Assembly: GCA_031375695.1 (NCBI GenBank)
Contig: JANMIF010000512.1
Coordinates: 1,479-65,478 of the forward strand
Length of the DNA stretch: 64,000 nt
Direction of reading: 5' to 3'
Origin: Planctomyces sp.
GTDB taxonomy: Bacteria > Planctomycetota > Planctomycetia > Planctomycetales > Planctomycetaceae
Positions 14,293 to 31,468 of this stretch are shown piece by piece. Positions within the stretch are counted from its first letter, which is position 1. Each line of letters starts with the position of its first letter. Position numbers and translations under genes: made by a program. Below the pieces are notes generated by a model. It saw only the letters and a list, made by a program, of their open reading frames with translations. It searched no databases and had not been told where the DNA came from.

Positions 14293-15204
14293 TCAGAATC
14301 TGTTGAGCCGAAATCCACCAAGTTGCCGTTTCGCATTGACGTTCGGCGGCTCCACGAGTTTGACCTTATTCGATTCTTTCTCGTCAGGCTCACCTGGCTC
14401 AGTCGGTTCAAGTGGCAATGCTTGAACCGCAGCCAACTCCGCTTGCAACCGTTTCAACTGTGACTCATCCAGAAAGTTTGCGAAGCGATCCTCTGGCAGC
14501 TTGACCAGTTGCGACAGCAAATACGCCAGTGCCGACGGATATTGCTGGCTAGGCTCAGAGACTTCCTCTGCGACCAGCTTTCGCAACGATTCGGCTTGAT
14601 CGTGGCTCAGTTTCAAGACTCCCGCAAGATAAAACGTCGTGCTGTCTCGCGACGTGCGCCATTGTTTGCTGACAAATGTCGCATGCTGAGCCGGTAGTAA
14701 AGTTCTTCGCAGAACTTTCGCAAACAACGACTCCTTCCCGTGCAAGCCGTCGCGAACGTGAAGGCTCAGTTCATTCTGTCGGATGGCGATCTCTTGAAAG
14801 ATTTGTTGATTGATGATGTTGTCGACGTTCTTATCCAGCAACTCACGCCGCAACTCCGCGATCGCATCGAGATGCCGCTTCATGTCACCTCGCCCCGCCA
14901 ACCGCAGCGCCGCTCGCTGCTGATCCGAAAGTTCCACTTGCCGTTCGAGGTATTCGATCTCCATTTGCAGATTCAATTCCAACCGATGCCGCAGCCTCTC
15001 GTCCGCTTGAAGCAGCCGCTGCTCCACGTTGACTCGCCTCAACACCGGCTGCCCGTCCTCGTCAAAGTCTTCGACTTCCAACGACACATCCACGGCCTGA
15101 GCTGACGCAGCACAGACCATCACAGCTACGCCAATCAACCAGTTCCACAAATGCGTCCGCAACACCCGATTTCCTTGTCTTTGACTGCTGCTCCTCGCGT
15201 TCAT
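14293..15204 (-). CDS. secreted helical paralog P1 of the 14.3-19.3 kb family (most divergent member)
   Basis: 303 aa with a signal-like N-terminus. Contains VELSDQQRAALRLAGRGDMKRHL and KLSHDQAESLRKLVAEEVSEP. Its ATG overlaps the stop of the upstream gene (ATGA at 15201-15204). Confidence 0.85.
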   Translation of the reverse strand: MNARSSSQRQGNRVLRTHLWNWLIGVAVMVCAASAQAVDVSLEVEDFDEDGQPVLRRVNVEQRLLQADERLRHRLELNLQMEIEYLERQVELSDQQRAALRLAGRGDMKRHLDAIAELRRELLDKNVDNIINQQIFQEIAIRQNELSLHVRDGLHGKESLFAKVLRRTLLPAQHATFVSKQWRTSRDSTTFYLAGVLKLSHDQAESLRKLVAEEVSEPSQQYPSALAYLLSQLVKLPEDRFANFLDESQLKRLQAELAAVQALPLEPTEPGEPDEKESNKVKLVEPPNVNAKRQLGGFRLNRF

Positions 15205-16055
15205 TCCTCGTCCTCCTGACGAATGCTTGAATCATCCGGCAACATGCCATAGGTCTTGAGTGTCGATTCGTATCGACCGGCGTTTTGCAATTGCAGCGAA
15301 AGGTTCTGCCACTGTTCTTCGTTGAATAGCGGCTTGATCTTTTCTTCTGGCAACTTCGCGAGATGATACAGCACATAGCCGTGGCAGTACGGGCTGATGG
15401 CTTTCGGTGGCGGGACTTGTTCTTTGATCAGCTTGCGAAACTCCACGTCTTGGTCTTTGCGAAATGTCACAACGCGGTTGATAGTGGCAATGACGGTGTC
15501 CAACTGAGTTTCAAACAGCTCGGTTCGCTGCCGAAGTAAGTGCTTGGCCAACCTCTGCCGCTGTTCGGCGTCAAGCACATTCTGCACAGTCTTGCGAAGC
15601 AACGACGTCTCGCCAAACAGCCCTTTTCGATACGCAACTTGCATTGGCCGAATGGTCTGACTGAGTTCAATGTACGTCGCCTGATCGACGAACCCATTCT
15701 TCGATCTGTCGTTGGCTTGGCGAATCAGCGCGTCGAATTCCTCGAAGAATCTCTTGATGTCGCCCCGCCCAATGAGATCGAACTTCCGTTTCTGATCGGT
15801 CGTCAACTGGCAGGCTGCATTCCAGCGGGCGATCTCGTCTTTTAGCTGCAATTCAAAACGAAATCGCACCGTGCCCTCCGATGTTTGGCTGCCGACAATC
15901 CATTGCTCCAGCGTTTGCTGATTGACCAAAAATCGCGTCACTTCGATTTCTGCTTCCACGAACTCCGCATCGACAACGTCTGCGCTGGCGAAGTTCGCCG
16001 ATACGAAACCAGCCAGCATCGAAGACACGACACAGTGCCGCCAGATCGCAGTCAT
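15201..16055 (-). CDS. secreted helical paralog P2
   Basis: 284 aa. Contains EQWIVGS, CQLTTDQKRKFDLIGRGDIKRFF, GLFGETSLLRKTV and TFRKDQDVEFRKLIKEQVPPP. ATGA overlap with the upstream gene at 16052-16055. Confidence 0.85.
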   Translation of the reverse strand: MTAIWRHCVVSSMLAGFVSANFASADVVDAEFVEAEIEVTRFLVNQQTLEQWIVGSQTSEGTVRFRFELQLKDEIARWNAACQLTTDQKRKFDLIGRGDIKRFFEEFDALIRQANDRSKNGFVDQATYIELSQTIRPMQVAYRKGLFGETSLLRKTVQNVLDAEQRQRLAKHLLRQRTELFETQLDTVIATINRVVTFRKDQDVEFRKLIKEQVPPPKAISPYCHGYVLYHLAKLPEEKIKPLFNEEQWQNLSLQLQNAGRYESTLKTYGMLPDDSSIRQEDEE

Positions 16056-17227
16056 TCGGATTTCTCCTGACTCTCGTCACCGGCATCCGGCAGCAGCCCA
16101 TATTGTCGCAAATACTCTTCGTATCGAGCTGCGTTCCCTTTGATTTGGCCGAACTTGGTGATTTGGGTTTCGTCCAGCACGTTGCTCAGTTTTTCGTTCG
16201 GCATCCGCGACAGGTGATAGTAAACCCACATCGTTAGGTACTGATTGACTCGCACCGGCGGAGGGACTTCCGATCGAATCAACTTCTTCAAGCCCTCCTT
16301 TTGCTCATCTCGCAGCATGAGGAATTGCTTCAAGCTCGCCAGGCTGGCCTCTAATTGCGTTTCAAATTGCTGCCCGCGTTCCCGGATTTGCTCCGCGGCA
16401 TACTCGGCCGCGAACTTCGGCGGGATCGATTTCGGAACGGTTTTGCTCAACAGCGATTGATCGTCGAACAAGCCGCCCCCGGCGGCCATTCGCTGCCGCA
16501 AAGCCATCGCCGTTTGCTGAAGCCGAACGTACTCTTCTTGTTCAAGAAGTTGCAGCGACACGTCCGGCCCCAATTGATCATGTAACGCTTCCGCCAAACT
16601 AACGAAACGCTTGATGTCGCCACGACCGGCCAATTGCAGCTTGCGTCGTTGCGCCGCATCGAGCTGATACTTGGTTTGCAGCGCATCCAACTTCAAAGTC
16701 AACTGCGCCTCCCATTCCCGCTGAACTGCCTCCAGCGCTTTGTTCGATCCGAAAATCAACTGATCCAGATGCTGATGCGTGATCGAGAATCGCCGCACTT
16801 CAATGAGAACCTCATTGCCGTCGTCATCGACCTGCACCACCGGTGCGGCTTGTTGAATCATGACACCCGCCCGAGCGACTCCTGCCCGAACGACTACGGC
16901 TGCCGGCGCTGGTGCGGCCGCCGGTCGCTCGTTCGCCGGAACGAGCTTTTTCAATGCGGCCACGATTTGCACGCGATCTTTCACATTCCGTTCGCCCAGG
17001 GCGGCTTCGAGCTTCTTGGCGAAAGCGGTTCGCTCCCGTTTGTCCTCCGCCGGATGGCAGTACGCGCACGTCACCGCCTGGACCGCCGATGGAAACGCCT
17101 CTTCAAAAGCCACTTTGTATTGAGGCCGTGCGAAACTCGTCGCGGCGGGCAACAACAACATCAACACGATCGAACCACCGACCGCGCGAATGCCCCGACC
17201 CCTCATCGTTTCCATCAATATCCTCAT
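16052..17227 (-). CDS. secreted paralog P3 with N-terminal CxxCH (c-type heme-binding-like) module
   Basis: 391 aa. Contains RPQYKVAFEEAFPSAVQAVTCAYCH (CAYCH at 17054-17068), an Ala/Pro linker, then LDQLIFGSNK, YQLDAAQRRKLQLAGRGDIKRFV and GLFDDQSLLSKTV. ATGA overlap at 17224-17227. Confidence 0.85.
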   Translation of the reverse strand: MRILMETMRGRGIRAVGGSIVLMLLLPAATSFARPQYKVAFEEAFPSAVQAVTCAYCHPAEDKRERTAFAKKLEAALGERNVKDRVQIVAALKKLVPANERPAAAPAPAAVVVRAGVARAGVMIQQAAPVVQVDDDGNEVLIEVRRFSITHQHLDQLIFGSNKALEAVQREWEAQLTLKLDALQTKYQLDAAQRRKLQLAGRGDIKRFVSLAEALHDQLGPDVSLQLLEQEEYVRLQQTAMALRQRMAAGGGLFDDQSLLSKTVPKSIPPKFAAEYAAEQIRERGQQFETQLEASLASLKQFLMLRDEQKEGLKKLIRSEVPPPVRVNQYLTMWVYYHLSRMPNEKLSNVLDETQITKFGQIKGNAARYEEYLRQYGLLPDAGDESQEKSE

Positions 17228-18396
17228 GGCGAAGCTTCCTGACCGTCCTCGTCCACTTCGCCAGGCCAGAGGCCGGAGTTGCGGAGGTGCTGCTCGTATG
17301 CTGCCGCGTTCGCTCTGATCTGGCCGAGTTTCCCGAGTTGGGTTTCGTCGAGCACTTGCTTCAGCCTGTCGTCTGGCATTCGCGAAAGCTGGTACATCAC
17401 ATAGACGTAAGCTTGCTGATTCAATTGCCGCAACGGCGCGATGTCGGATCGAATCAATGCTTTCAACTTGTCCTTTTGGTCTTCTCGCAGCGTCAGGAAT
17501 TGAGTCAGGTTTTGAACGCTCTGAGTCACATAGGTTTCGTACTGCTGATCGCGCTGGAGTTTCTGATCGGCTAGGTACTTCTCGGCGAACTTCGGGCTGA
17601 TCGCTTTTGGAATCGTCTTGTTCAACAGCGATTGCTCGCCGAACAAGCCAATGGTCACACCGTCGCTCAACCTGTTGGCCATCAAAAAGCGATTTCGCAA
17701 ACCGATCGCTCGTTGCTGGATCTGGACGTACTCTTGTTGGTCGAGCGTGATCAATGTCGAGGCGGCGGCTTCCCCTAATTCCGCGTGCAGTGCATCCGCC
17801 TCACCGAGAAATCGCTTGATGTCCCCACGACCGGCCAACTGCAACTTGCGTCGCTGAGTCGCGTCGAGTTCATACTGCTTGGTCACTGTTTCGACGGCCA
17901 TTTTCAATTGCGATTCAAATTCCGTGCGAGCCTGCTCGACGGTTTTATTCGATCCGAAAATCCATTGATCCAGATTTTGATGCGTGATCGAAAATCGCTG
18001 CACTTGGACGTTGATCGCGTTGCCATCGTCATCGAGTTCGACCGCTTGTTCGACGACGAAAGCCGGGGCAAGTCTGCGCATAACAACTGCAGCGCGCGCC
18101 TGAACCACCGGCGCCGCCACTGGTCGGGCTTTGGGAGGACCGATCTTCTTCAAGGCCGCAACGACTTGCGCCTGATCTCGCACCATCTTCGCTCCCAAGG
18201 CGACTTCGAGTTGTTTGGCGTACTCATTGCGTTGCCGCTGGTCGTCTCCTTCGTGACAGGCGGCACACGTCACCTCGCCAAAATCCTGAAAGGCTTGTTC
18301 AAAGCCCAGTTTGTAATTCGGCCGTGCGACGACCGTATCAGCTTGCATCACCACCCACAGCACAATCAGACTGACGAGCAAGGCGCATCGCGGCAT
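17224..18396 (-). CDS. secreted paralog P4 with N-terminal CxxCH module
   Basis: 390 aa. Contains RPNYKLGFEQAFQDFGEVTCAACH (CAACH at 18253-18267), an Ala/Pro linker, then LDQWIFGSNK, YELDATQRRKLQLAGRGDIKRFL and GLFGEQSLLNKTI. Confidence 0.85.
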   Translation of the reverse strand: MPRCALLVSLIVLWVVMQADTVVARPNYKLGFEQAFQDFGEVTCAACHEGDDQRQRNEYAKQLEVALGAKMVRDQAQVVAALKKIGPPKARPVAAPVVQARAAVVMRRLAPAFVVEQAVELDDDGNAINVQVQRFSITHQNLDQWIFGSNKTVEQARTEFESQLKMAVETVTKQYELDATQRRKLQLAGRGDIKRFLGEADALHAELGEAAASTLITLDQQEYVQIQQRAIGLRNRFLMANRLSDGVTIGLFGEQSLLNKTIPKAISPKFAEKYLADQKLQRDQQYETYVTQSVQNLTQFLTLREDQKDKLKALIRSDIAPLRQLNQQAYVYVMYQLSRMPDDRLKQVLDETQLGKLGQIRANAAAYEQHLRNSGLWPGEVDEDGQEASP

Positions 18397-18399
18397 GAT

Positions 18400-19260
18400 T
18401 CACTCCGCTCCATCGGGCATCAAACCATTCTGTTTCAGAAATTCTTCCATGCCTCGGCCCTGAGCCAGATTCGCCTTGACGATTTTCCATTGAGCGGCGT
18501 CGAACAACGGTTTGAGTTTGTCTTCGGGGATCTTCGAGGCTTGCAGCATCACGACGTAATACTCGTATTGCCCGGCCGAGCGGTGAGGCGGTTTCGTTTC
18601 CTCGCGGAGCAGCTTCAGCACCTTTTCCCGTTGCTCGTGCCGTAGCGGCATTTGAGCTTCCAGCATGGCGACCATCAGTTCCAATTTGGCGTGATACCGC
18701 GCCAGCCTGCGATCAGCTACGGCCGTGTCGTAGTTCGCCGTCTGTACGGCATCGAGCGTGTTACGAATCGTCTTCAGCAAGAACGATTGATCGTTGAACA
18801 AGCCGGCATTCAGAGTCATTTGCAACGGTTGAATCTCTTGCCAAATCTCGTTCATCTTCTGCTGGTCTTTGCGAACGATTAGGAATTTCTGACGAGTGAC
18901 TTCGTAATGTTCCCAAAACCGTTTGATGTCTCCTCGCCCCGCCAGTAGGAGTTTGTTCTTTTGAGAATCATTGAGCTGACACTCCCGATCAACCGCATCC
19001 ATTTGCAACTTGAGCTGCGTTTCCAACTTCTGCCGCCCCGTGCTGGCATTCCGTCCGCCGAAAATCCACTGCTCGAAGTTCTCTTCCGAAAACTCCCCCT
19101 GTACCGGCTGCAGCTGCTCGCCATTCGGTTCGTCGTCATCACCTGCAACTGCCGCGTCCAGGAGTTGAATCGCGAAATCATCTGCGACCACAACGCCGCT
19201 CCAGCAAACTGCCGCCGCGATCAAAATCAACAAAAACAACCGACGAATTCGATCTCGCAT
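18400..19260 (-). CDS. secreted helical paralog P5
   Basis: 286 aa. Contains FEQWIFGGRN, CQLNDSQKNKLLLAGRGDIKRFW, GLFNDQSFLLKTI and PLRHEQREKVLKLLREETKPP. Confidence 0.85.
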   Translation of the reverse strand: MRDRIRRLFLLILIAAAVCWSGVVVADDFAIQLLDAAVAGDDDEPNGEQLQPVQGEFSEENFEQWIFGGRNASTGRQKLETQLKLQMDAVDRECQLNDSQKNKLLLAGRGDIKRFWEHYEVTRQKFLIVRKDQQKMNEIWQEIQPLQMTLNAGLFNDQSFLLKTIRNTLDAVQTANYDTAVADRRLARYHAKLELMVAMLEAQMPLRHEQREKVLKLLREETKPPHRSAGQYEYYVVMLQASKIPEDKLKPLFDAAQWKIVKANLAQGRGMEEFLKQNGLMPDGAE

Positions 19261-19283: not shown

Positions 19284-20192
19284 TCAATTCCCAACCGCGT
19301 CATCTTCGACCAACACTCCGAACCCACCCCAGCCGCCCCAACCCCAGAATTGGTTTTGGCCGGTGTTGCTGTCTCGCCAAGCCTGCTTTTGAGTCTCATT
19401 CAGAAATGGCACGACCATTTCATCCGCCGGTCGCGGCACGTTCTCGTCACCGTGCATGAACATCTCCAGCGATTGATCCCAGCCGCTCTTCCAATTTGTC
19501 TTCAGCGACTCGCTGATCTTTTCCCGCTGATCCTTCGACAACACCATATCTTTGTCGATCTTGGCCACGAGGTTCAGCAGCGCAACTCGTTTGCGAGCTT
19601 CGCCCCGCTTGACCATCTCCGCCTCATAAGTCGCGAGCTTCTCGGCAGGAAACATCGCCTTGAGCGTTTCCGTGAACGTCTCTTGAATCGGCTTGCGTGG
19701 ATCGGGGTAAATCGAACTCCCGTCGGTTGGCACCTGCCAGCCCCCTTGCTGCATCTTGCGTTGCACATCGGCCAATTTCTTGACGGCGATTTTAAGTCCT
19801 TTTTCACCGACCTTCTTGAGTTCCTTTTGCTGCTCCTTCGTCGGTTCAAATACCCGCTGAATCAACGAGAGTTCCGCCTTGACCAGCGGCTTCAATTGCG
19901 GAGCAAACTGCTGCTCAAGCTGATCGCCCCCCGCAGGCAAGTCGCCATCACCAAGAATGAGCTGCGCTGGCACTGCGGCACCGCCGCCGCCGAACAGATT
20001 CAGCACTCCTTCAATCAACGCGCTGACACCTTCTTTGACAAGCTCCTGCTCCGCCGTCGCCGCCTCAACTGCTTTCTGAGCCGCCTCAACAACCGCCTCG
20101 GCGGCAGCGGCTGCCGGTTTCGGCTTGTCTTCAGCCAAGCCGAAAGTGACGCTCGTCAATAACAGCGACAGGCCCAGACCAACAGCTTTCAT
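19284..20192 (-). CDS. secreted Ala/Lys/Gln-rich helical protein, possibly a distant relative of P1-P5
   Basis: The internal ATG at 20192 (GAAGGGGA Shine-Dalgarno upstream) gives MKAVGLGLSLLLTSVTFGLAEDK. Contains PTKEQQKELKKV, LSKDQREKISESL and FLNETQKQAW. C-terminus is WGWGGWGGFG. Confidence 0.8.
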   Translation of the reverse strand: MKAVGLGLSLLLTSVTFGLAEDKPKPAAAAAEAVVEAAQKAVEAATAEQELVKEGVSALIEGVLNLFGGGGAAVPAQLILGDGDLPAGGDQLEQQFAPQLKPLVKAELSLIQRVFEPTKEQQKELKKVGEKGLKIAVKKLADVQRKMQQGGWQVPTDGSSIYPDPRKPIQETFTETLKAMFPAEKLATYEAEMVKRGEARKRVALLNLVAKIDKDMVLSKDQREKISESLKTNWKSGWDQSLEMFMHGDENVPRPADEMVVPFLNETQKQAWRDSNTGQNQFWGWGGWGGFGVLVEDDAVGN

Positions 20193-20214: not shown

Positions 20215-20511
20215 TCACTCGCGTTGTTGAACCGCATCAACTTGGCGGTTGAACGACGACTGAAACTCATAAGCTTTCGGAAGCTTCACAGCGAGTGCCA
20301 CCACGAGCACAGCCGCGACGCCGCCAGTTAGCGCGCACCAAAACTGCGTCGTCGTCTTCACGTCGGCGCGTGAGTACGAAACCATCGCCACCACGAACGC
20401 ACCGAAGCCGAACACCATTCCGATCAGGCTGTTCGTAAACACCTGCCCGTCCAAAATCAGCGGAAACGCAACGGCGATCAGCAGCAAGACACCAGCGATC
20501 GACAACCGCAT
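20215..20511 (-). CDS. small integral membrane protein (3 TM)
   Basis: 98 aa: MRLSIAGVLLLIAVAFPLIL...GMVFGFGAFVVAMVSY...ALTGGVAAVLVVALAV. Confidence 0.7.
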   Translation of the reverse strand: MRLSIAGVLLLIAVAFPLILDGQVFTNSLIGMVFGFGAFVVAMVSYSRADVKTTTQFWCALTGGVAAVLVVALAVKLPKAYEFQSSFNRQVDAVQQRE

Positions 20512-20637: not shown

Positions 20638-23600
20638 TTACTTTTCCGATTTCTTCTCCAGCCGATTGAAGTATTCATCCAAGCCAGATCGGAATTCTTC
20701 CGGAAGTTTTGGGCCGGAGTCGCCGGTGCTTTGTGATACGTCGCGTTCCTCGCGAGATTCTTTTTCGTTCGTGCCGCTGCCGATCAACGCCAGGGCCGAG
20801 TCGTTTGTGTTGCCGCCGCCTCCGCCACCGGGATTGGCACCTCCGCCTCCGCCACCTTTCGGGTTGAAGCGTTTCGACTGCAGCAGTAACTCGATCGCTT
20901 CCGTTTCGGCGGCAATTGCAGGCGAACCGGTTTCCGCGCGGCCGAGGATCAGCATCGCGTCGTGCATCACTTCCGAGACTTTGTTCAGGAGCGCGATCTC
21001 TTTCGCGAATTCCTGTTCGCCGTCCGGCAAGGTGGCGATCCGGTCAACCACTTTTTCGACTCGTTCGCCCAGGATGCGTTGCGTTTCGGCCTGTCGGTCG
21101 GATTCCGTTTTATGTTCGTCCGATTTGACCGCCGGCTTGGCTTGCTCGGCGACTCGTGTTTCTTCTCGCAGATTGATTTCACCTTCCAGGATTTGCAGGA
21201 CTTCTAGAACGACCGAGGGGGGCAAACTTCCCTTCGACTTGCAGCCCGGACACTGACCTTTGCAACCGGCATCCACCAAGTCTTCGGCCCAACGGTCGAG
21301 CGTGTCGGACCAGAATTCGGCTTGAGCCATCGAAAGCCCGTTTTCCTTTTTCAGATCGTCGCCAAGTTGCCGCAGTCCGCCGATGACGTCTTGTTTGCGC
21401 ATGTCGTCGAGCACGACCTTGAACGGGGCCATGCGGCGGCGTTCAAAATAACCCGCGATGTCGTCCATGATGTTCGAGACGTCGAGGCTGCCCTTTCCTT
21501 CTTCTTTCGACAGTTCGATGAAGAGTTTCGTCGCCGTCTCTTTTGTTGCGACCGCCGCCACGCCGAACGCATCGGTCAGTTGATCGCCGAGCCGCCCGGC
21601 CACTTTGTTCTGCGTGCGAGATGCCGCCTTCAATCGTTTGACCAACGTGCTCCCTTCAAGATTCGCCAGCACGCGATTCAACTCGTCGGCAATCTTGTCA
21701 AACTCCGCCAGCAAATCTTGTTGCTGCTTGACCGCCTCTTCGACCTTTTCCGATGCCGGGGGTTTCGGTTGATCGCCACTGCTCGCCTTGCCGGCCAACA
21801 TCGTTGACGGCAGTCGTAAGCTCGGTGAGCTGTTGTTCTTCTTCGGTTCGGACGGCTTCGCATTCGGGTCTTGCGGTTGCTGAGTCGATTCCACATCGGT
21901 GATCGACGGCACGCTGTTCGGTTTCTTGGGTTCGTCTTCGCCTTCCTTCTTTTCTTCCTTGCCGCCGGAGCTTTTCGTTGTCGCGCGGTTCTGTCCCGCT
22001 TGTCGCGGCGGCTCGCTCGGCTTCGCCGATGACGGCTGACCCGATTGAGGTTTGCCGTCGTTTGGATTTGGCTTGCTTGGATTCCCTTGATTCATCGCCA
22101 ACTGCGGAGCTTGAGCACCTTGCTTCAACAGGTCGGCGACCGACGGCATCCGGTTGCCGGAGATGTCTTTTAGGATTTGCAGCATCTCGGCCCACTTCTC
22201 CAAATGGCCGACGCCGAACTCCGGATTGCGACTCGCTTGCTTCACCAAATCTTCGCCAGAGAGGACGAGATTGCTGAGCCGCCGCCCGTTCGCTCGTTCG
22301 TCGACCGCTTGCTTGTCCAACCGCTTGCGATTGTCGGCTTGATCGAGTTCCGCCGGCTCAAGGTCACGCAATTGCTTGTTGGTTTCGTGAAGAGCCATCT
22401 CGCGATCGCGGACTTCGAGCGACTGCCGATGCCACTTGCTCAACTGCTCGGTCATCCAGATCGCGTGTTGTTCGGGGTTGAGCACATAAAACGTGTAGAC
22501 CCCCGAATATGCTCGCTCGCGGCCGGGGAAGAAATCTTCCGCGAAGAGCCGGACCTGAATCGGCTGCGGTTCGATGCCGAGGACTTTCGCTGAGAACGTA
22601 CCGGTCAGGTCGAGCGTTTCTTTGTCGTTGCCACCGGCCGAGAGGATGCGTTCCCCTTTCGCGGGGTCTTTGAAGTTCGTCTTGTCGATACCGTTCCACT
22701 CGATGCCGACGTGCTTCACGCCGAAATCGTCGGTCGCTCGGACTTTGAACGTGAGCTGCTCGGAATCCAACACGACTTTTTGCCGAGGCAATTCTTCGCA
22801 GGCAATTGACGGTATTTCGTCTTCGCGAGCATTGATCGACACGACAAACGGCTCGCGTCCGGCGAGGCCATGCTTGTCGATCCATTGGAACTCCAACTTC
22901 CGATTTTCATCAACCGCGACGACCGGGCTAACGACCTTTGCACCGCTTGGCGATGTTGCCGCGCCGTCCACTTTCGCCCCGGTCAGTTCGCGAGTCGCCG
23001 TGACCGCGACCGTCGCACGACTCCCTTTGACCAGCGACAACGATCCGCCTCGGACATCTTTGTGAACCGGCTTCGTTCGTTCGAGGTATTTCGGGAGTTC
23101 GATATTCGCCTCGATGCCGGACAACTCCGGTCGCAGCGTCGGCTGAATCGTGACATCGCGCCGGAAGTCGCCGATTCGCACGCGTGTCCGAGCCGCGTCA
23201 ATCTGCGGCGGGATTTCAAATTCGTACTGACCGGCATTTAACCGCGCGGTCACCGGCTGCTGCATCCCGACTTGAATCTCCCCGGCTTCTGGTCGCCACG
23301 CAGTGCCGCTGGCCAGCTTGACCGGCTGCGTAAACACTTCGCCATGCGGCACGACGATCGTGTCGGGCAATGCGTCGATTGCGGCAAACGTGTATCGCGG
23401 CGTGTCGCCCCACGGCTTCAAGAATCGCGCCCAAGCATTTGTCGCCGCCGCTGGCACAACCGCCAGCAATGCGATCGCCGCTAGTCCCGCACAACAAGCC
23501 AGCACCGCGCGACCGCGATGCTTCGGAGCCGGCACTGAATCGGAGAAGTCACGCTTCGCCGCAGTCTCGGCCACTTGCCCAACCGCCGCTTGGCACAACG

Positions 23601-23976
23601 CCAACGATCGAGCTTGTTCACTTTCGTTGTGAACCAATTCGATGATTCCGAGCAACTGATCGCCGACGCTCGGATGCTTTCGGCTCAACAATCGAGCCAA
23701 CTGTTCCAGCCGTCGATGTCGCCAAACCCAGCGATGCAGCGCCAGCGGGATCAACGCACAACCGGCAATCGCCGCGATGAAGATGCCGAGTCGCACGCTT
23801 GCCGGCGTGTCAAGGATGCGGTCGAGAGCGAACGTCGCCAGGAATCCAACGAAAACTCCGAACACCGCTCCACAGGCGGCCTCGATCAATTTGATCGTCC
23901 ACACCCGTTTGCGAAACGCCAGCAACTGAGCCTGTAACGTTTCCGGCAACTGCAATTGAGCCTGCGACAAACTCAT
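20638..23976 (-). CDS. large membrane-anchored protein, DUF4175-like (family call tentative)
   Basis: 1112 aa. AAGGAG Shine-Dalgarno. Two N-terminal TM helices, a beta-rich middle, coiled-coil, a K/P/S/Q low-complexity stretch, a poly-Gly tract (GGGGGANPGGGGGG) and the C-terminal EEFRSGLDEYFNRLE. Confidence 0.85.
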   Translation of the reverse strand: MSLSQAQLQLPETLQAQLLAFRKRVWTIKLIEAACGAVFGVFVGFLATFALDRILDTPASVRLGIFIAAIAGCALIPLALHRWVWRHRRLEQLARLLSRKHPSVGDQLLGIIELVHNESEQARSLALCQAAVGQVAETAAKRDFSDSVPAPKHRGRAVLACCAGLAAIALLAVVPAAATNAWARFLKPWGDTPRYTFAAIDALPDTIVVPHGEVFTQPVKLASGTAWRPEAGEIQVGMQQPVTARLNAGQYEFEIPPQIDAARTRVRIGDFRRDVTIQPTLRPELSGIEANIELPKYLERTKPVHKDVRGGSLSLVKGSRATVAVTATRELTGAKVDGAATSPSGAKVVSPVVAVDENRKLEFQWIDKHGLAGREPFVVSINAREDEIPSIACEELPRQKVVLDSEQLTFKVRATDDFGVKHVGIEWNGIDKTNFKDPAKGERILSAGGNDKETLDLTGTFSAKVLGIEPQPIQVRLFAEDFFPGRERAYSGVYTFYVLNPEQHAIWMTEQLSKWHRQSLEVRDREMALHETNKQLRDLEPAELDQADNRKRLDKQAVDERANGRRLSNLVLSGEDLVKQASRNPEFGVGHLEKWAEMLQILKDISGNRMPSVADLLKQGAQAPQLAMNQGNPSKPNPNDGKPQSGQPSSAKPSEPPRQAGQNRATTKSSGGKEEKKEGEDEPKKPNSVPSITDVESTQQPQDPNAKPSEPKKNNSSPSLRLPSTMLAGKASSGDQPKPPASEKVEEAVKQQQDLLAEFDKIADELNRVLANLEGSTLVKRLKAASRTQNKVAGRLGDQLTDAFGVAAVATKETATKLFIELSKEEGKGSLDVSNIMDDIAGYFERRRMAPFKVVLDDMRKQDVIGGLRQLGDDLKKENGLSMAQAEFWSDTLDRWAEDLVDAGCKGQCPGCKSKGSLPPSVVLEVLQILEGEINLREETRVAEQAKPAVKSDEHKTESDRQAETQRILGERVEKVVDRIATLPDGEQEFAKEIALLNKVSEVMHDAMLILGRAETGSPAIAAETEAIELLLQSKRFNPKGGGGGGANPGGGGGGNTNDSALALIGSGTNEKESREERDVSQSTGDSGPKLPEEFRSGLDEYFNRLEKKSEK

Positions 23977-24238: not shown

Positions 24239-24269
24239 AAAAAAAACGCCCGACTCGAAGAGTCGGGCG
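24239..24269 (-). terminator. rho-independent terminator of the giant RTX gene
   Basis: cgcccgactc(24247-24256) gaa gagtcgggcg(24260-24269). On the minus strand the stem is followed by a run of 8 T (A8 at 24239-24246). Confidence 0.8.
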
Positions 24270-24348: not shown

Positions 24349-27300
24349 TTAAATCTCGTCCAATGCTTCCGCCAATTGGACTGGCCCCGTCACGCGGCCG
24401 GACACATTATCACGTTTGGTTGGCACCGTCCGAGCGAAGAACCAATCCCGGCCGGACAACCCCTTGAGAGCGTCGTGGCTCGGCGAGTCGTCGTGGACAG
24501 TGGCGGCCGTCAGGAAGGACGTTCCGTTCAGACCACCCCCCGTGGTGCCACGCAAGTGATCGATTCGCACTTCATAGGATCCCCCAACACTGGTCCACTC
24601 GGCAAGGATATTCATCAGTGCCATGATGTCCGCATCGAAGTCCTGTGTACCGGTGATCGGATCGAAGTCGGTATTGCCGGCGATCAGAATGTCGTCCTCC
24701 GAACCGCCGGTGAGCATGTCGCTTCCGGTGCCGCCAATAAGCAAGCTGCCACCCGATCCGCCGGTCAGTTTGTCGTTCCCGTCGCCACCCACTTGGATGT
24801 CATTGCCACTGCCGCTGCCGAGCGTGTCGTTGCCCGTTTCGCCGAACATCTTGTCGTTACCACTGCCGCCGTTGATGGCGTCGTTGCCGTCGCCGCCAAA
24901 GGCTTGGTCGTCTCCGGAGCCAGCATCCAAACCGTCGTTGCCGGCGTCCCCATGAAGGGTGTCATTGCCGCCACCGCTCGTGAGCTTGTCGTTCCCCGCT
25001 CCACCATCCAGGGAATCGTTGCCGTTGCCGCCGATCAGGATGTCGTTGCCAGCACCACCAGAAAACTTGACGTTGACGCTCGTGCCGGATGCGTCCAGTT
25101 TGTCATTGCCGCCATTGCCGTTGACGACCACTTCTCCGGTGAAGCAGCCGTTCAAGGAACTCTCGAGGATGACCCGGTCCGCCTGCGATCCCCCTTCGAG
25201 GTAGATCCGCTCGAACAGATTGTTCGTCCCCATGGCCAGACCGGAGAAGATCACGGTCGAACCTAATTTGATCACCAGATTGCCATTCACGTCGCACGAG
25301 ACACGGACGGTGTTCGACGCGTTGGGGAGCGTGAGGCATGGCCCCAGGGTCTCGATCGACACAAAGTTGACCTGCTGATGAATTCCCGGAGTGTTGTAAT
25401 TGCCCGTGCCGGCGGCGTTCGTCAGCGTGGTCGTCGCGGCCAACGGACTCACAAGTAGTGCGTCGCCGGGAATCGAGCCAGTGGCAGGGAGTCCGCCATC
25501 GACGGTAATCGCGTCTCCGGCAACACTGGTTGGGGCTGGTGTGACAAAGAATTTGTCGTTGTCCGCCTCGCCGTTGAAGTTGTAGATTCCCGCGACTGTG
25601 TTAGCTGGGCTTAGTCCCGGCCCGTTCACGTTGATGGTATCGGTCCCGGCACCAGAGTTGACGGTCAAACTCGCGATCGCGTCACTCGTCCCAGCCACGT
25701 TGATCAGGTTCACGCCGGCCCCCGAATTGAGCACCAGGATGTTCACGTTGGCGTTGTAGGTGATGCTGGTTCCAGCTCCCGCCCCATCACGGTCGATCGT
25801 CGTGGCGTTAATCGTGTAGTCGTTGGCCGTGGTGTCCCCCTGGTCGTTGATGTTCAGCGTATCGTTGGTGTTGGCTGCAGCGTTGTCATTGAAGACCACC
25901 GCGCCGAGGACCGTATCCAGCGAATTGGCCGCGCTGCCGATGCTGACGATGTCCTGCAACGCACCGCCGGTAATCGTTGTCGTGGCGGCGACCGGCGTGC
26001 CAAGCACATTGTACGTGTTGACTCCCAGGCCCCCCTTCACCTCGACAACGTTGACGTTGGCGTTATAGGTGATGAGTGCTGCCGCCGGGGTGAGGGAGCG
26101 TAAGATCGTCCCGTTGCCCGCGGACACGTCAAGCACATAGGTGTTGGGACCGGCGTCACCCTGGTCATTGATGTTCAACGTATCGGTGGCGTTGGCTCCG
26201 GCGGCGTCATTGAACGTCACCGCGCCGAGGATTGCATCCAGAGAATTGGTGCCGAAGCTGCCGATGCTGACGATGTCCTGAGCCGCACCGCCGTTGATCG
26301 TCGTCGCGGCACTGACAGGCGTCGCCCGCACGTCGTAGATGTTGGCCCCCGTGCCGCCGTTCACCGCGACAAAGTTGACGAATTGATTGTAGGCGATGAA
26401 CGCCGCGCCCGCGCGTGAGATTATCATGTAGGGAAACGACCCCAAGCTGGCCACATAGGTGTTAGCCGAGGCGTCCCCTTGATCGAGGATGTTCAGCGCA
26501 TCGGTCGCATCTCCGACGACGTCGTTGTAGATCACTGCGCCGAGGATCGCATCCAGTGAATTGGACGTGGCACCGATGTTGACGATGTCCTGAGCCGTGT
26601 TTCCGGTGATCGTCGTGGTTGCGGTGGCCGGCGTGGCGACCACATTGTAGGTGTTGACTCCGAGGCCCCCCTTCACATCGACAAGATCGACCTTGTCGTT
26701 GTAGGTGATGAGCGCCGCCAAAGGGGTCGCGGTGCGGGAGATCGTCCCGTTGCTGCCGGACACGTTGAGCACATAGGTGTTGGGACCGGCGTCACCTTGG
26801 TCGAGAATGTTCAGCACGTCGGTAAAGACTCCGGCGGCGTCATTGAAAACCACCGCACCGAGGATCGTATCCAGCGAATTCCCCGCGCTGCCGATGTTGA
26901 CGGTGTCCAGCAAGATGTTGCCGGTGATCGTCGTCGTGACACCGGTTGGCGTCGCGAGCAACCCGAAGGTGTTGGCTCCCGTGCCGCCGTTCACCGCGAT
27001 GTTCGGGGTGGTGAACGACGCATCCACCGCCTGTTGGAAATAGCTCTCGCCGTCGTTGCCGAGATTGATCGTCAGCGAGGTGGTGGGCGTCACGAAGTCG
27101 GTCTGCTCAAACGTGTTCGCCAGACTCCGCAGCCGCGAGATGTTGGCGACATTGGGCGTATCGTTCTCCAACTGGGCCATGTCGTTGCCATTGCCACTGA
27201 GCAAGTTGAAGACGACCGTCGCAGGAGTTCCGGCGTTCACCAGAACCGGGCTGAGATTTGAGTAGGCATAGTTCGCCGTCGCGCCACCGACCAGAGCGAT

Positions 27301-28575
27301 CGTCCCATTGTGCCCGTTCGCCCCATCGGCGAGGAACGTATGTGTCTCTCCCGTGTGTGCTCCGCCGAGGATCTGCAAACTGTCGCCTGGAGCGCCGGTC
27401 TGCGTGCCGCCGTCGTAGAAGATGCCGCCGGCGGGAGCGAACAGCCCAGCGGCTGGGTTGTTGATTGTCAGCGTGTCGTTGCCGGCGAGGCCGTTGAATG
27501 TGAACGCGGTGATGCCGGAGAAACTGACGGCTGGTGCGCCGTTCAAGCTGTAGTTGCCCGAGTTGGCCCCGGTTGCCGTAACGACCACCGTGTCCGCGTT
27601 TGCCGTGCCAGGGAGGACGATCGTCGTGCCAACGAAGACCGGAGCGGCGGCCGGAAGCAGCGCCAAATCGGGCATTATCACGGCACCGGAAAGGAGGTTG
27701 CCGACCAACGTGGCCGCACCGGTGCTGAGATTGATCGAGTAAAACTTGGTCGGACCGGGACCGGCATCCGTAATCGAGGTAAATCCCGTGGCAGTCCCGT
27801 CAAGGATGTCGAACCCGCTTCCGTTTGTACCAGTTGCCACGACGCCGGTGGAACCGATCGTGGTGAGCTTCCCGGTGTTTGGTGAATCGGGTGACGCGTT
27901 CACGCTTCCCTGCCGGACAAGAATGTCTTTGAAAAAGTCGATCCCATACAACGTCGTGGTGCCAGTCACCGTCACATTTTGATCGTACGCGGCTGCGACG
28001 ATTGCAGGGTCGTCCCCGAAATTGGAATCCCCAGTGACAAATGCCAGTGGCGTGTCGGTGCCGGCCAGCGCGCCGTCATTCGGATTCACTCGCAAGTTCA
28101 CGTCGGCATTGCTGACGATACGGATGCGATCCACGCGCGGATTGAAGTCGAATCCGTAAAAAGCGCCATCAGTCAAAGTCGAAATGAACGGAGTCGAACC
28201 GACTTGAGTGGCTGCGCCCGTTGTGGTGTTAATCGTGTAGATGCGGCCTGCGCTGTCATTGACTCCAGCACCGTCGACGATTCCGAGAGCGTAGAGCTGC
28301 CCCGTCGCGGGACGGAAGTCGATCCCTTCAATCTGCTCGCCCGCCTGCAGGCCCGTAATCGCCACAGCCGCGCTCAACGCGACAGCGGGTGTCGCGCTGT
28401 CAAAGCTCGACAGTGTCGTTCCCGCAGCATCGACGACAAAAACGGGGGTCAGCAAGGTGCGTTCTTCCAGCCGTTCCAAGGGGACAGTCGACATGCGTTG
28501 GCGACGATTCGTGTTCAGGCGGCGTGGGGTGACGTTCTTCTTCATCCAGCTCAGAAACATTTTGGGAATCAACAT
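24349..28575 (-). CDS. giant secreted protein: LE.R.LL N-terminal motif + DUF4394 + ~4.4 tandem ~105-aa repeats + RTX calcium-binding nonapeptide repeats
   Basis: The N-terminus contains ...[26 protein letters not shown]. Also [17 protein letters not shown] and [15 protein letters not shown] (DUF4394), and [51 protein letters not shown] (RTX). The start is uncertain: ATG at 28575, 28560 or 28545. The track start at 28785 is probably too long. Confidence 0.9.
   Translation of the reverse strand: [1408 protein letters not shown]
25620..27005 (-). repeat. intragenic tandem repeat, period about 315 nt, alternating A-B-A-B similarity
   Basis: Units begin [14 protein letters not shown] / [15 protein letters not shown] / [15 protein letters not shown] / [15 protein letters not shown] / [15 protein letters not shown]. 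The nucleotide stretches around 26020-26260 and 26650-26890 are near-identical by eye. Confidence 0.85.
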
Positions 28576-28884
28576 GGGTGCGGTCCTTTGTTCAGCGATG
28601 TGGAACTTGGAAGTGAGCCAACTGATGGCGATCAGGTCGGGTTTTTTCACGCCGCAGAACCGCTCGCAGAATGGTTCAGCCGCGTGAAAAAAACGCCCGT
28701 CCCCCTTCCACCTTGATGGGAGTGGGAGCCAATCTAAGAACCTCATGGATAATGTCAACCAAGGCAGGATGCGTAGGCTGCGCAAAAGGAATGGTTGTCA
28801 AGAATGCAATTGTCGATCGGACGTCTTGGCGAAAAACGCCGCTTGACCGACTTTGTTTTTCACGACTACATTCCGCCCGCACTT

Positions 28885-30259: not shown

Positions 30260-31468
30260 GTGTATTTCGTGGCGAATAAGAGTGTCTTAGCAGCGGTCAA
30301 AGAGGGCAAGCAGGCTCTGGCCAAATTCCGTTCAGCGAACGCCAATGTGCTGCTCGATCTGACCGAGGCCGATTTGCGCGATGCCGATCTGCGCGGTATG
30401 AATCTGCGCCGCGTGTTGCTCGTCGGAGCCAAACTAACTCGCGCCGATTTGACGGGCGCCATGTTGATCGAAGCGGACCTGACGCGAGCGAATTTGAAAT
30501 TGGCCAAACTGCCGAAAGCCAATCTGCATCGAGCCAATCTGTTCAAAGCACAGATCACGGAAGCCGATGCCACTGAAGCGGACTTCAGCCGCGCCAATTT
30601 GAATGGCGTGGACATGTCGAAGTCGAATCTGTCGCAAGCCAACTTCGTTGAGGCGGATCTCACGAAAGTCGAAATGTCGGACGCGAAGGTGTTCGGCACG
30701 GATTTCAGTTTGGCTAAGTTCGCCGACACGCACGCTTCGCGATTGCAGTGCGGTTGGACTCGTTTCGGGAATTGCGATCTGACTCAAGTGACCGGATTGG
30801 ACACGGCTACTCACGCCGGTCCGAGTAGCATCGGCCTGGATACCTGGCTGCGAGCTCGCGGTCGGATTCCGGCGGACTTTTTGTTGGGAAGCGGCTTACC
30901 GGCGGATGTGGTTTCCTCGCTCCGCACGTTGGCGGCACCGACGACTCTTTGTTTCATCCGTTTCAGTCACGAAGACGTGTCGTTCGCCGAGCGATTGGCG
31001 GCTGGGTTGCGACAAGTCGGATTGGTTTGTTGGCTCGACGAAATGCCCGATGCCGCGCGCGTCGAGCCACCGTTGGAGGCTCAGTACGATTCGCAACAGC
31101 CACATAAAGTGATTCTGTTGGCCTCGAAGAATTCCCTGACAGCCCCGTGGATTGAAACTGAAGTCGGCCGGTTGTTGGACCGTGAGCAACAAATCAAAAA
31201 GGAGACCGGCCAAGAGCTCAAGCTGCTGCTGCCGTTGATCCTGGACGGTTTTTTGTTTGGTGGCGATGCCAAAGGCAAACACGATAAAGCGATCGCGGCG
31301 CATGTGGTCGCCGACTTCAACGGCTGGCGTCGCAATGACACAAAGTTTGACGAAGTCTTGCCCAAAGTATTGATCACGCTTGGCGCGCAGTCGCGAAAGC
31401 CCGAAGCCCCCAAAGAGGAGGGCAAAGGGGCATTCGGCTGGTTTCGGAAGAAGGATGACGATGAGTAA
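30260..31468 (+). CDS. pentapeptide-repeat protein fused to a C-terminal TIR domain
   Basis: 402 aa (alternative GTG at 30269). Residues ~33-160 are A(D/N)LxX pentapeptide repeats (ADLRDADLRGMNLRRVLLVGAKLTRADLTGAMLIEADLTRANL...). Residues ~229-372 are TIR_2-like: CFIRFSHEDVSFAERLAAGLRQVGLVCWLDE ... VILLASKNSLTAPWIETEV. Confidence 0.8.
   Translation: MYFVANKSVLAAVKEGKQALAKFRSANANVLLDLTEADLRDADLRGMNLRRVLLVGAKLTRADLTGAMLIEADLTRANLKLAKLPKANLHRANLFKAQITEADATEADFSRANLNGVDMSKSNLSQANFVEADLTKVEMSDAKVFGTDFSLAKFADTHASRLQCGWTRFGNCDLTQVTGLDTATHAGPSSIGLDTWLRARGRIPADFLLGSGLPADVVSSLRTLAAPTTLCFIRFSHEDVSFAERLAAGLRQVGLVCWLDEMPDAARVEPPLEAQYDSQQPHKVILLASKNSLTAPWIETEVGRLLDREQQIKKETGQELKLLLPLILDGFLFGGDAKGKHDKAIAAHVVADFNGWRRNDTKFDEVLPKVLITLGAQSRKPEAPKEEGKGAFGWFRKKDDDE

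Follow-up and report, generated by a model that had tools for sequence, protein, structure and literature searches.

Tandem paralogs in a Planctomyces contig belong to a large, unnamed Planctomycetota protein family usually linked to an extended MoxR-VWA operon

Five co-oriented open reading frames (ORFs) fill positions 14293 to 19260 on the minus strand of the window, the whole 64,000-nucleotide stretch of contig JANMIF010000512.1 from Planctomyces sp. (assembly GCA_031375695.1) that was analyzed here, and their boundaries agree with those given in a first-pass annotation of this DNA. The five encoded proteins, P5, P4, P3, P2, and P1, are members of a large unnamed family that is found almost only in Planctomycetota and has no Pfam or NCBIfam model. 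This family of thousands of proteins has a confidently predicted fold with no neighbor in the PDB, is usually wired into an extended MoxR-VWA operon, and is joined there by a paralog conserved as its partner, a periplasmic thioredoxin, and a membrane protein that is a candidate selenoprotein. We tentatively propose that, in the periplasm, the array proteins would act as adaptors or scaffolds within an envelope system that is Bat-like and redox linked.

RESULTS

The array consists of five true paralogs preceded by a divergent sixth copy

The first-pass annotation had described five tandem paralogs sharing a module of about 250 amino acids (aa), and comparison of the translations bears this out. 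Pairwise BLASTP E values ranged from 7e-18 (P1-P3) to 8e-126 (P3-P4) at 25 to 50% identity, and the family hidden Markov model (HMM) matched each of the five ORFs with E values of 5e-72 to 4e-111. P5 (18400 to 19260, 286 aa) is the canonical family copy; P4 (17224 to 18396, 390 aa) and P3 (16052 to 17227, 391 aa), which are 49% identical to each other, both carry an N-terminal extension of about 110 aa; and P2 (15201 to 16055, 284 aa) and P1 (14293 to 15204, 303 aa) match the family HMM at E values of 6.8e-95 and 5.5e-72, respectively. All of the motif strings quoted earlier, namely, (A/I)GRGD(I/M)KR, QWI(F/V)G, GLF..QS.L.KT, and the third and C-terminal blocks, are present verbatim in the translations. 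The first of these reads AGRGDIKR in P5 (nucleotides [nt] 18919 to 18942), IGRGDIKR in P2 (aa 95 to 102, nt 15750 to 15773), and AGRGDMKR in P1 (aa 103 to 110, nt 14875 to 14898), all on the minus strand, and in P5 it shares the N-terminal domain of the module with GLFNDQSF (nt 18781 to 18804, minus strand). Each module contains four LxxxQ units, located at aa 96, 169, 206, and 253 in P5. P1 is the most diverged copy, as had been noted, with the lowest BLAST scores against the other paralogs.

The use of dN/dS (the ratio of nonsynonymous to synonymous substitution rates) among the paralogs, which had been put forward as a check, was practicable, and then marginally, for P3-P4 only; the other pairs, at 25 to 35% amino acid identity, are past synonymous saturation. 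For this marginally usable pair, a dN of 0.37 and a dS of 1.26 (omega of about 0.3) point to purifying selection on P3 and P4.

Directly upstream of P5 lies a 302-aa protein, Up (Up328/302; 19284 to 20192, minus strand), which had been thought to carry only the LTxxQ-like units. Up is instead a full-length remote homologue of the module, that is, a divergent sixth paralog: an alignment of 33 Up orthologues, compared with the family profile, gave an hhalign Prob of 98.9% and an E value of 3e-17 over 188 columns, with a non-GRGD sequence at the position of the missing GRGD motif. In related loci, 32 of 37 Up-type ORFs directly precede a family gene, and Up followed by a family copy is therefore a conserved gene pair. 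The window contains one Up and then five family copies.

Upstream of Up is Big (20638 to 23976, minus strand), a membrane protein of 1112 aa. The 445-nt gap between Big and Up is occupied by a hydrophobic ORF of 98 aa (20215 to 20511, minus strand) with about three predicted transmembrane helices, whose reality is uncertain; Big and Up are adjacent in other loci, and tblastn found no relative of the ORF in any related locus, making it window specific. Within the array, the P4/P3, P3/P2, and P2/P1 junctions are 4-nt ATGA overlaps, each preceded by a purine-rich, Shine-Dalgarno-like stretch. A strong terminator-like hairpin of the intrinsic type (24247 to 24269, minus strand), with a 10-bp stem containing 8 G-C pairs and a T8 tail, separates Big from the next gene upstream. 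Since the hairpin falls at this position, the transcription unit would comprise Big, Up, P5, P4, P3, P2, and P1, most likely as a single unit with Big as its first gene. The product of the gene beyond the hairpin (24349 to 28785, minus strand) is 1478 aa long and has a DUF4394 domain at its N terminus and RTX calcium-binding repeats at its C terminus.

The family is large, almost confined to Planctomycetota, and unannotated

According to the first-pass annotation, retrieval of this genome alone would have counted against its observation. A profile search run exhaustively over 1.84 billion cluster representatives instead retrieved 3632 representatives at an E value of ≤1e-3 and 1016 at ≤1e-30; those with a named source are nearly all from Planctomycetota. 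A word-indexed search with P4 gave 22 relatives, none with a functional name, and among the best 120 matches of a further search, every entry named by its source was called "hypothetical protein" and none had a Pfam domain. A scan of species-representative genomes yielded 40 loci, almost all from metagenome-assembled genomes of Planctomycetota, spread over Planctomycetia, Planctomycetaceae, Isosphaeraceae, and Gemmataceae, and arrays of one to seven family copies recur across the phylum. The sole contigs with the N-terminal domain that are not labeled as Planctomycetota (L031, L040, and L042) carry the name "Deltaproteobacteria bacterium MAG277," which may reflect misbinning or rare transfer.

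In other loci, the copy that comes after Up, and so corresponds to P5 in position, shares about 50% identity with it. P1 to P4 have no relative above about 33% identity in the fetched genome loci, and the closest relative found anywhere, P0003, is 44% identical to P4. Scans of the six array proteins and Big against Pfam, NCBIfam, and PADLOC returned nothing usable, and a literature search on the motif and on the planctomycete operon found nothing relevant.

The module has two domains, a predicted helical fold, and a conserved charged site

The AlphaFold2 model of P5, based on a 21-sequence alignment, has a predicted local distance difference test score (pLDDT) of 87.9 and a predicted template modeling score (pTM) of 0.71. 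It is all-helical, with an N-terminal hydrophobic helix corresponding to a signal peptide, a disordered acidic linker (aa 22 to 50), and eleven helices. The proteins are predicted to be exported to the periplasm by a Sec-type signal peptide; a lipoprotein assignment was rejected, as the N-terminal Cys residues, read from the sequences, are not preceded by a lipobox.

The module is made of two evolutionary units. The N-domain (profile positions of about 24 to 170; P5 aa of about 55 to 170) carries LxLAGRGDIKRFF and GLFxxxSLFxKT, and the C-domain (P5 aa of about 166 to 283) is modeled on its own with a pLDDT of 92.7 and a pTM of 0.81 as a small helical bundle around LTxxQ-type helix caps. The two halves have a helix-plus-LTxxQ unit in common (hhalign Prob, 70%; P value, 4e-5). 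The N-domain is a portable unit: it stands alone in proteins of about 210 aa (L027, L029, L033, L035, and L038), is fused to C-terminal leucine-rich repeats (LRRs) in proteins of about 470 to 610 aa at five loci (L036, L037, L039, L041, and L044), and occurs twice, together with tetratricopeptide repeats, in P0020. Foldseek searches of the PDB with the full P5 and C-domain models gave no match at an E value of <1, and at the sequence level the family and C-domain profiles retrieved nothing but noise from the PDB.

Residue conservation was assessed in 146 family members, using P5 numbering. The most conserved positions are D111 (99%), S159 (98%), Q100 (97%), F155 (95%), and G110 (94%), followed by R114 and K163 (both 90%), the Gln residues of the other three LxxxQ units (90 to 95%), and C94 (80%). 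Conserved polar residues are thus concentrated in the two N-domain motifs, around D111, G110, R114, S159, and K163.

The LTxxQ-like units are conserved, and membership in the Spy/CpxP family is not established

The recurring LxxxQ units had been compared to the LTXXQ motif of the Spy, CpxP, and ZraP periplasmic chaperones, with a distant relationship to their fold as the suggestion. The units themselves are real and conserved: all four Gln residues are at least 90% conserved among the 146 members (90 to 97%), each unit lies immediately before a predicted helix, placing it at a helix N terminus in the AlphaFold2 models, and many homologues read literally LTxxQ. The relationship to the Spy/CpxP fold, in contrast, was not demonstrated. 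None of the window proteins matched PF07813, PF13801, or PF16231 at an E value of ≤1, and NCBIfam gave no match either. When the 146 members were scanned at an E value of ≤10, PF16231 (DUF4890) and PF07813 (LTXXQ) were the most recurrent sub-threshold Pfam matches, in 6 and 5 members, with best E values of 0.048 and 0.071, respectively; both models also match Spy itself. No Spy, CpxP, ZraP, or CnrX chain was found at an E value of ≤10 when the family and C-domain profiles were searched against all PDB sequences; for comparison, Spy finds CpxP at 1e-12.

Profile-profile alignment of the C-domain with a Spy-plus-CpxP profile gave an hhalign Prob of 45% and a score of 27.1, far above 150 column-shuffled controls (mean, 9.8; standard deviation, 1.6; maximum, 14.8). 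The template profile was thin (effective number of sequences, 1.7) because the Spy search gave only near-identical enterobacterial Spy proteins, and this limits the test. The alignment places LxxxQRxxLxxLLxxETxPP on LTDAQKQQIREIMKGQRDQMKRPP of Spy and FDxxQW on LTPEQK, so that both motifs and the Pro-Pro turn are in register; it jumps over Spy helix alpha2 and most of alpha3, that is, the cradle hairpin. In Foldseek, a method that is weak on small helical folds, the full P5 model matched CnrX only among these proteins, at an E value of about 5, with a TM-score of 0.55 on the target and a root mean square deviation of 4.3; the C-domain model gave a best E value of 2.3 and no Spy-family entry.

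If the array proteins were distant true members of the Spy/CpxP/ZraP/CnrX group, they would be ATP-independent periplasmic chaperones or inhibitory or accessory partners of an envelope-stress sensor. The four conserved L(T/S/D/N)xxQ helix caps, the recurrent DUF4890 and LTXXQ matches, the hhalign score, the CnrX match, the predicted export, and the internal repeat shared by the N and C halves are all consistent with such a descent. However, nothing matched at a curated threshold, a confidently modeled C-domain retrieved no Spy-family structure, and the weak hints may concern different halves of the protein, as the hhalign signal belongs to the C-domain and the CnrX match is absent when the C-domain is searched alone. 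Omission of the alpha2-alpha3 hairpin from the alignment also speaks against it, and a nearly invariant charged GRGDIKR site is unlike the client surface of Spy, which is plastic. We therefore consider a chaperone or sensor-partner role of this type unlikely. The motifs are arranged nonrandomly, which could stem from a very ancient shared origin or from convergence on helix capping; the evidence does not establish LTXXQ family membership, and the predicted fold does not look like the Spy cradle.

Related loci place the family in an extended MoxR-VWA operon

The operon neighborhood was recovered by BLAST of reference proteins across the related loci. The order of genes in these loci is MoxR, DUF58, a BatA-like protein (BatA660), X732, Big, Up, the family copies, a toroid protein, and a thioredoxin fusion. 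MoxR is of the AAA_3/bpMoxR type; BatA660 has a BatA N-terminal domain, and X732 is a second transmembrane, VWA-like protein of 732 aa, both with a DxSxS motif resembling a metal ion-dependent adhesion site as read from the translations. The toroid gene encodes a squalene-hopene-cyclase-like alpha/alpha-toroid protein (SQHop-cyclase-like), and the last gene encodes a protein of about 950 aa that ends in a ResA/TlpA-type thioredoxin domain.

In most of 22 loci, the gene immediately upstream of Up encodes a Big orthologue of 50 to 63% identity; in the related loci Big is about 1100 aa long, with its transmembrane helices at the N terminus, and it has no Pfam, NCBIfam, or PDB match. In about ten related loci, most clearly in L003, L011, L014, L016, and L017, the segment made up of Big, Up, and the family copies is preceded by genes for MoxR, DUF58, and the BatA N-terminal domain protein. 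In two loci (L009 and L010), the array occurs with the toroid and thioredoxin genes and without Big. What remains associated with one half of the operon or the other is thus the Up/family pair.

Other genes of the window include a neighboring one for a PSCyt1/PSCyt2/PSD1 protein, which gives the window a planctomycete-like character. At 30260 to 31468 on the plus strand, pentapeptide repeats and a C-terminal TIR domain (PF13676) occur together in a 402-aa protein, an architecture possibly related to defense or signaling.

Conserved cysteines, CxxCH extensions, and a candidate selenoprotein suggest a redox link

A family Cys that precedes the first LTxxQ unit (R-x-C-x-L-T-x-x-Q) shows 80% conservation, and many modules have no other Cys. 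P2 retains it (AAC-QLTTDQ), and P1, P3, and P4 do not have it. In Up proteins, 25 of 29 have a Cys at the equivalent site; the Up of the window has Phe.

P3 and P4 carry a CxxCH motif in their N-terminal extensions: CAYCH in P3 (aa 54 to 58, nt 17054 to 17068; context TCAYCHPAED) and CAACH in P4 (aa 44 to 48, nt 18253 to 18267; context TCAACHEGDD), each a candidate c-type heme site. The extension region spans aa 33 to 115 of P3 (16883 to 17131) and aa 23 to 105 of P4 (18082 to 18330), all on the minus strand. It sits behind a hydrophobic N terminus, a predicted signal peptide, and was found in P3 and P4 only, among 170 retrieved family proteins and all loci. The extension represents a fusion, specific to this lineage, of what may be a mono-heme c-type domain. 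In a Pfam scan at an E value of ≤10, no cytochrome family rose above noise; CCP_MauG, matched by P3 at an E value of 0.13 and so far below its cutoff, was the sole heme-protein model among the matches listed. A PDB search gave motif-level matches only, to the four heme sites of one tetraheme subunit, and no obvious distal Met or His ligand is seen nearby in the sequence of P3.

Big provides a further candidate redox site. In the window it reads GQCPGC at aa 907 to 912 (nt 21241 to 21258, minus strand), and the first Cys (aa 909, codon TGT) aligns with an in-frame TGA in the Big genes of eight related loci (L005:2710, L006:1285, L008:1715, L011:8305, L015:5016, L017:8259, L018:2803, and L034:7302); nine other loci have Cys, as the window does. 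About 19 nt downstream of the TGA, and in the TGA loci only, lies an invariant GGCAGTTTGCCGCC hairpin, which in these lineages reads GGCAGUUUGCC. The invariant GGC AGT TTG CCG CC at this place forms a GCGGCA-GUU-UGCCGC hairpin built from rare AGT/TTG codons that Cys-type loci avoid. Gene callers split Big of the TGA loci into ORFs of about 900 aa and 195 aa. Alignment of TGA with Cys is the classic signature of a selenocysteine/cysteine pair, and it is accompanied here by an element resembling a selenocysteine insertion sequence (SECIS). An Rfam scan at the TGA site gave no SECIS match, and Big with its SECIS-like element is a candidate selenoprotein on the strength of the alignment and the hairpin. 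Separately, at L025:7974, a different position of the Big orthologue that aligns with Cys is occupied by an in-frame TAG (DPA*CGTC, compared with DPACNGQC in L026); because several family copies are frameshifted in that locus, assembly errors or pseudogenization are likely there.

These features raise the alternative that the array proteins take part, as components or as substrates, in a periplasmic thiol/selenol redox relay, in this genome with heme as well. The single conserved Cys by the first LTxxQ unit would then form mixed disulfides with Up, with Big through its selenocysteine or Cys, or with the thioredoxin fusion, and P3 and P4 would add electron transfer via c-type heme. Conservation of the Cys in the family and in Up argues for such a relay, as do the ResA/TlpA-like domain conserved in the operon, the TGA/Cys pair of Big with its downstream hairpin in eight loci, and the CxxCH motifs behind a signal peptide. 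Yet the Cys is missing from P1, P3, P4, and the Up of the window, the thioredoxin gene is not in the window, the P3/P4 extension has no cytochrome Pfam match and in P3 no obvious distal ligand, and the residues that are most conserved are D, R, K, S, and Q rather than Cys. We accordingly consider such a relay unlikely.

DISCUSSION

The reading that we prefer, though with less than even confidence, assigns the array proteins to a Bat-like, redox-linked envelope system, in which they would be periplasmic subunits with an adaptor or scaffold role. Up, P5, P4, P3, P2, and P1 would be produced behind Big as a cotranscribed, translationally coupled set of related exported proteins, and the system as a whole would extend the MoxR-VWA "Bat-like" type of envelope system in a form specific to Planctomycetota. 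In the complex that we envisage, the conserved N-domain surface (GRGDIKR/GLF) would dock on a conserved partner shared by these proteins, for which the Up paralog or the periplasmic portion of Big is the most plausible candidate, and variety in what is bound would come from the C-domain, the fusions to LRRs, or the additional paralogs. The system appears to be redox-linked because of the ResA/TlpA-like thioredoxin fusion, the selenocysteine/cysteine site of Big, the conserved Cys of Up and the family, and the CxxCH motifs of P3 and P4.

Several observations weigh against this proposal. BLAST found no match to MoxR, DUF58, BatA660, X732, the toroid protein, or the thioredoxin fusion in the 64-kb window, so that the window is connected to the Bat-like system by orthology of Big, Up, and P5 only. 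Because arrays occur without Big at two loci, no single partner is obligatory, and because the window's Up, P1, P3, and P4 have no Cys at the family site, thiol chemistry is not essential to every copy. Furthermore, "adaptor/scaffold" is a weak, generic class, and all-helical proteins whose charged helices are conserved might just as well be regulators or chaperones. The analysis demonstrates paralogy, the size of the family and its lack of annotation, the conservation of the operon, a predicted fold, and the modular use of domains; export, complex formation, docking, and the redox role are what we infer.

A bolder form of the proposal, which we rate as rather improbable, is that Up, the family paralogs, the selenocysteine/cysteine Big, and the thioredoxin fusion constitute an unrecognized, Planctomycetota-specific, periplasmic thiol/selenol machine, for redox or repair, that is assembled or powered by MoxR-VWA. 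The GRGDIKR N-domain would be its docking module with a new helical fold, and the heme-c paralogs would link it to electron transfer.

Still harder to sustain, and in our judgment very unlikely, is the idea that the proteins are structural subunits that polymerize into a periplasmic or envelope lattice, with coupled genes setting the stoichiometry and MoxR-VWA serving as the assembly chaperone. MoxR ATPases act in the maturation of dedicated complexes, and this, the translational coupling of the tandem paralogs, and the recurrence of one- to seven-copy arrays across the phylum would suit a lattice. No significant coiled-coil or filament-like match was found, however, the copy number varies from one to more than five between lineages, and the N-domain-LRR fusions suit an adaptor better than a polymer. 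A defense or conflict system, or an array of immunity proteins, was rejected on the grounds of a conserved, housekeeping-like operon throughout the phylum, the absence of a PADLOC match, and probable purifying selection.

Planctomycetota envelopes are unusual and poorly understood, and to our knowledge the function of the widespread MoxR-VWA ("Bat") envelope operons is still unknown. Against this background, the present analysis supplies a parts list and a set of target residues for mutagenesis (D111, R114, S159, K163, and C94 in P5 numbering). It is an annotation-level advance and a lead rather than a mechanistic discovery, and a large family of this kind is not in itself surprising in a phylum rich in hypothetical proteins.

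Comparison with known systems

With c-type cytochromes, P3 and P4 share a CxxCH motif downstream of a signal peptide, in a (V)TCxxCHxG(D/E) context like that of the sites in the reaction-center tetraheme cytochrome. They differ in that the similarity of their extension is limited to the motif, with no cytochrome Pfam match and no identifiable distal ligand.

Like Spy, CpxP, ZraP, and CnrX, the array proteins are all-helical, exported (in their case by prediction), and equipped with repeated L(T)xxQ(K/R)xxL helix-capping motifs. The order of elements is also the same as in Spy and CpxP: a Pro-Pro turn comes after the first motif, and the second lies near the C terminus. In contrast, the array module has two domains and roughly double the length, its alignment does not include the long alpha2-alpha3 cradle hairpin of Spy, and its invariant GRGDIKR and GLFxxxS site has no counterpart in Spy or CpxP. 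Spy is also a single stress-induced gene, whereas the array family forms multiparalog arrays within a MoxR-VWA operon.

The closest parallel at the level of gene order is the Bat operon. The related loci begin with MoxR, DUF58, a BatA N-terminal domain protein with DxSxS, and a second transmembrane, VWA-like protein, and large membrane and helical periplasmic proteins come next, in a position that resembles that of BatC, BatD, and BatE in the Bat operon. The two differ in that Pfam and NCBIfam matches reveal no resemblance of Big, Up, or the family proteins to BatC, BatD, or BatE, and in this window the MoxR/VWA half is not adjacent. In addition, the planctomycete operon extends the Bat arrangement with an alpha/alpha-toroid protein and a ResA/TlpA-like thioredoxin fusion.

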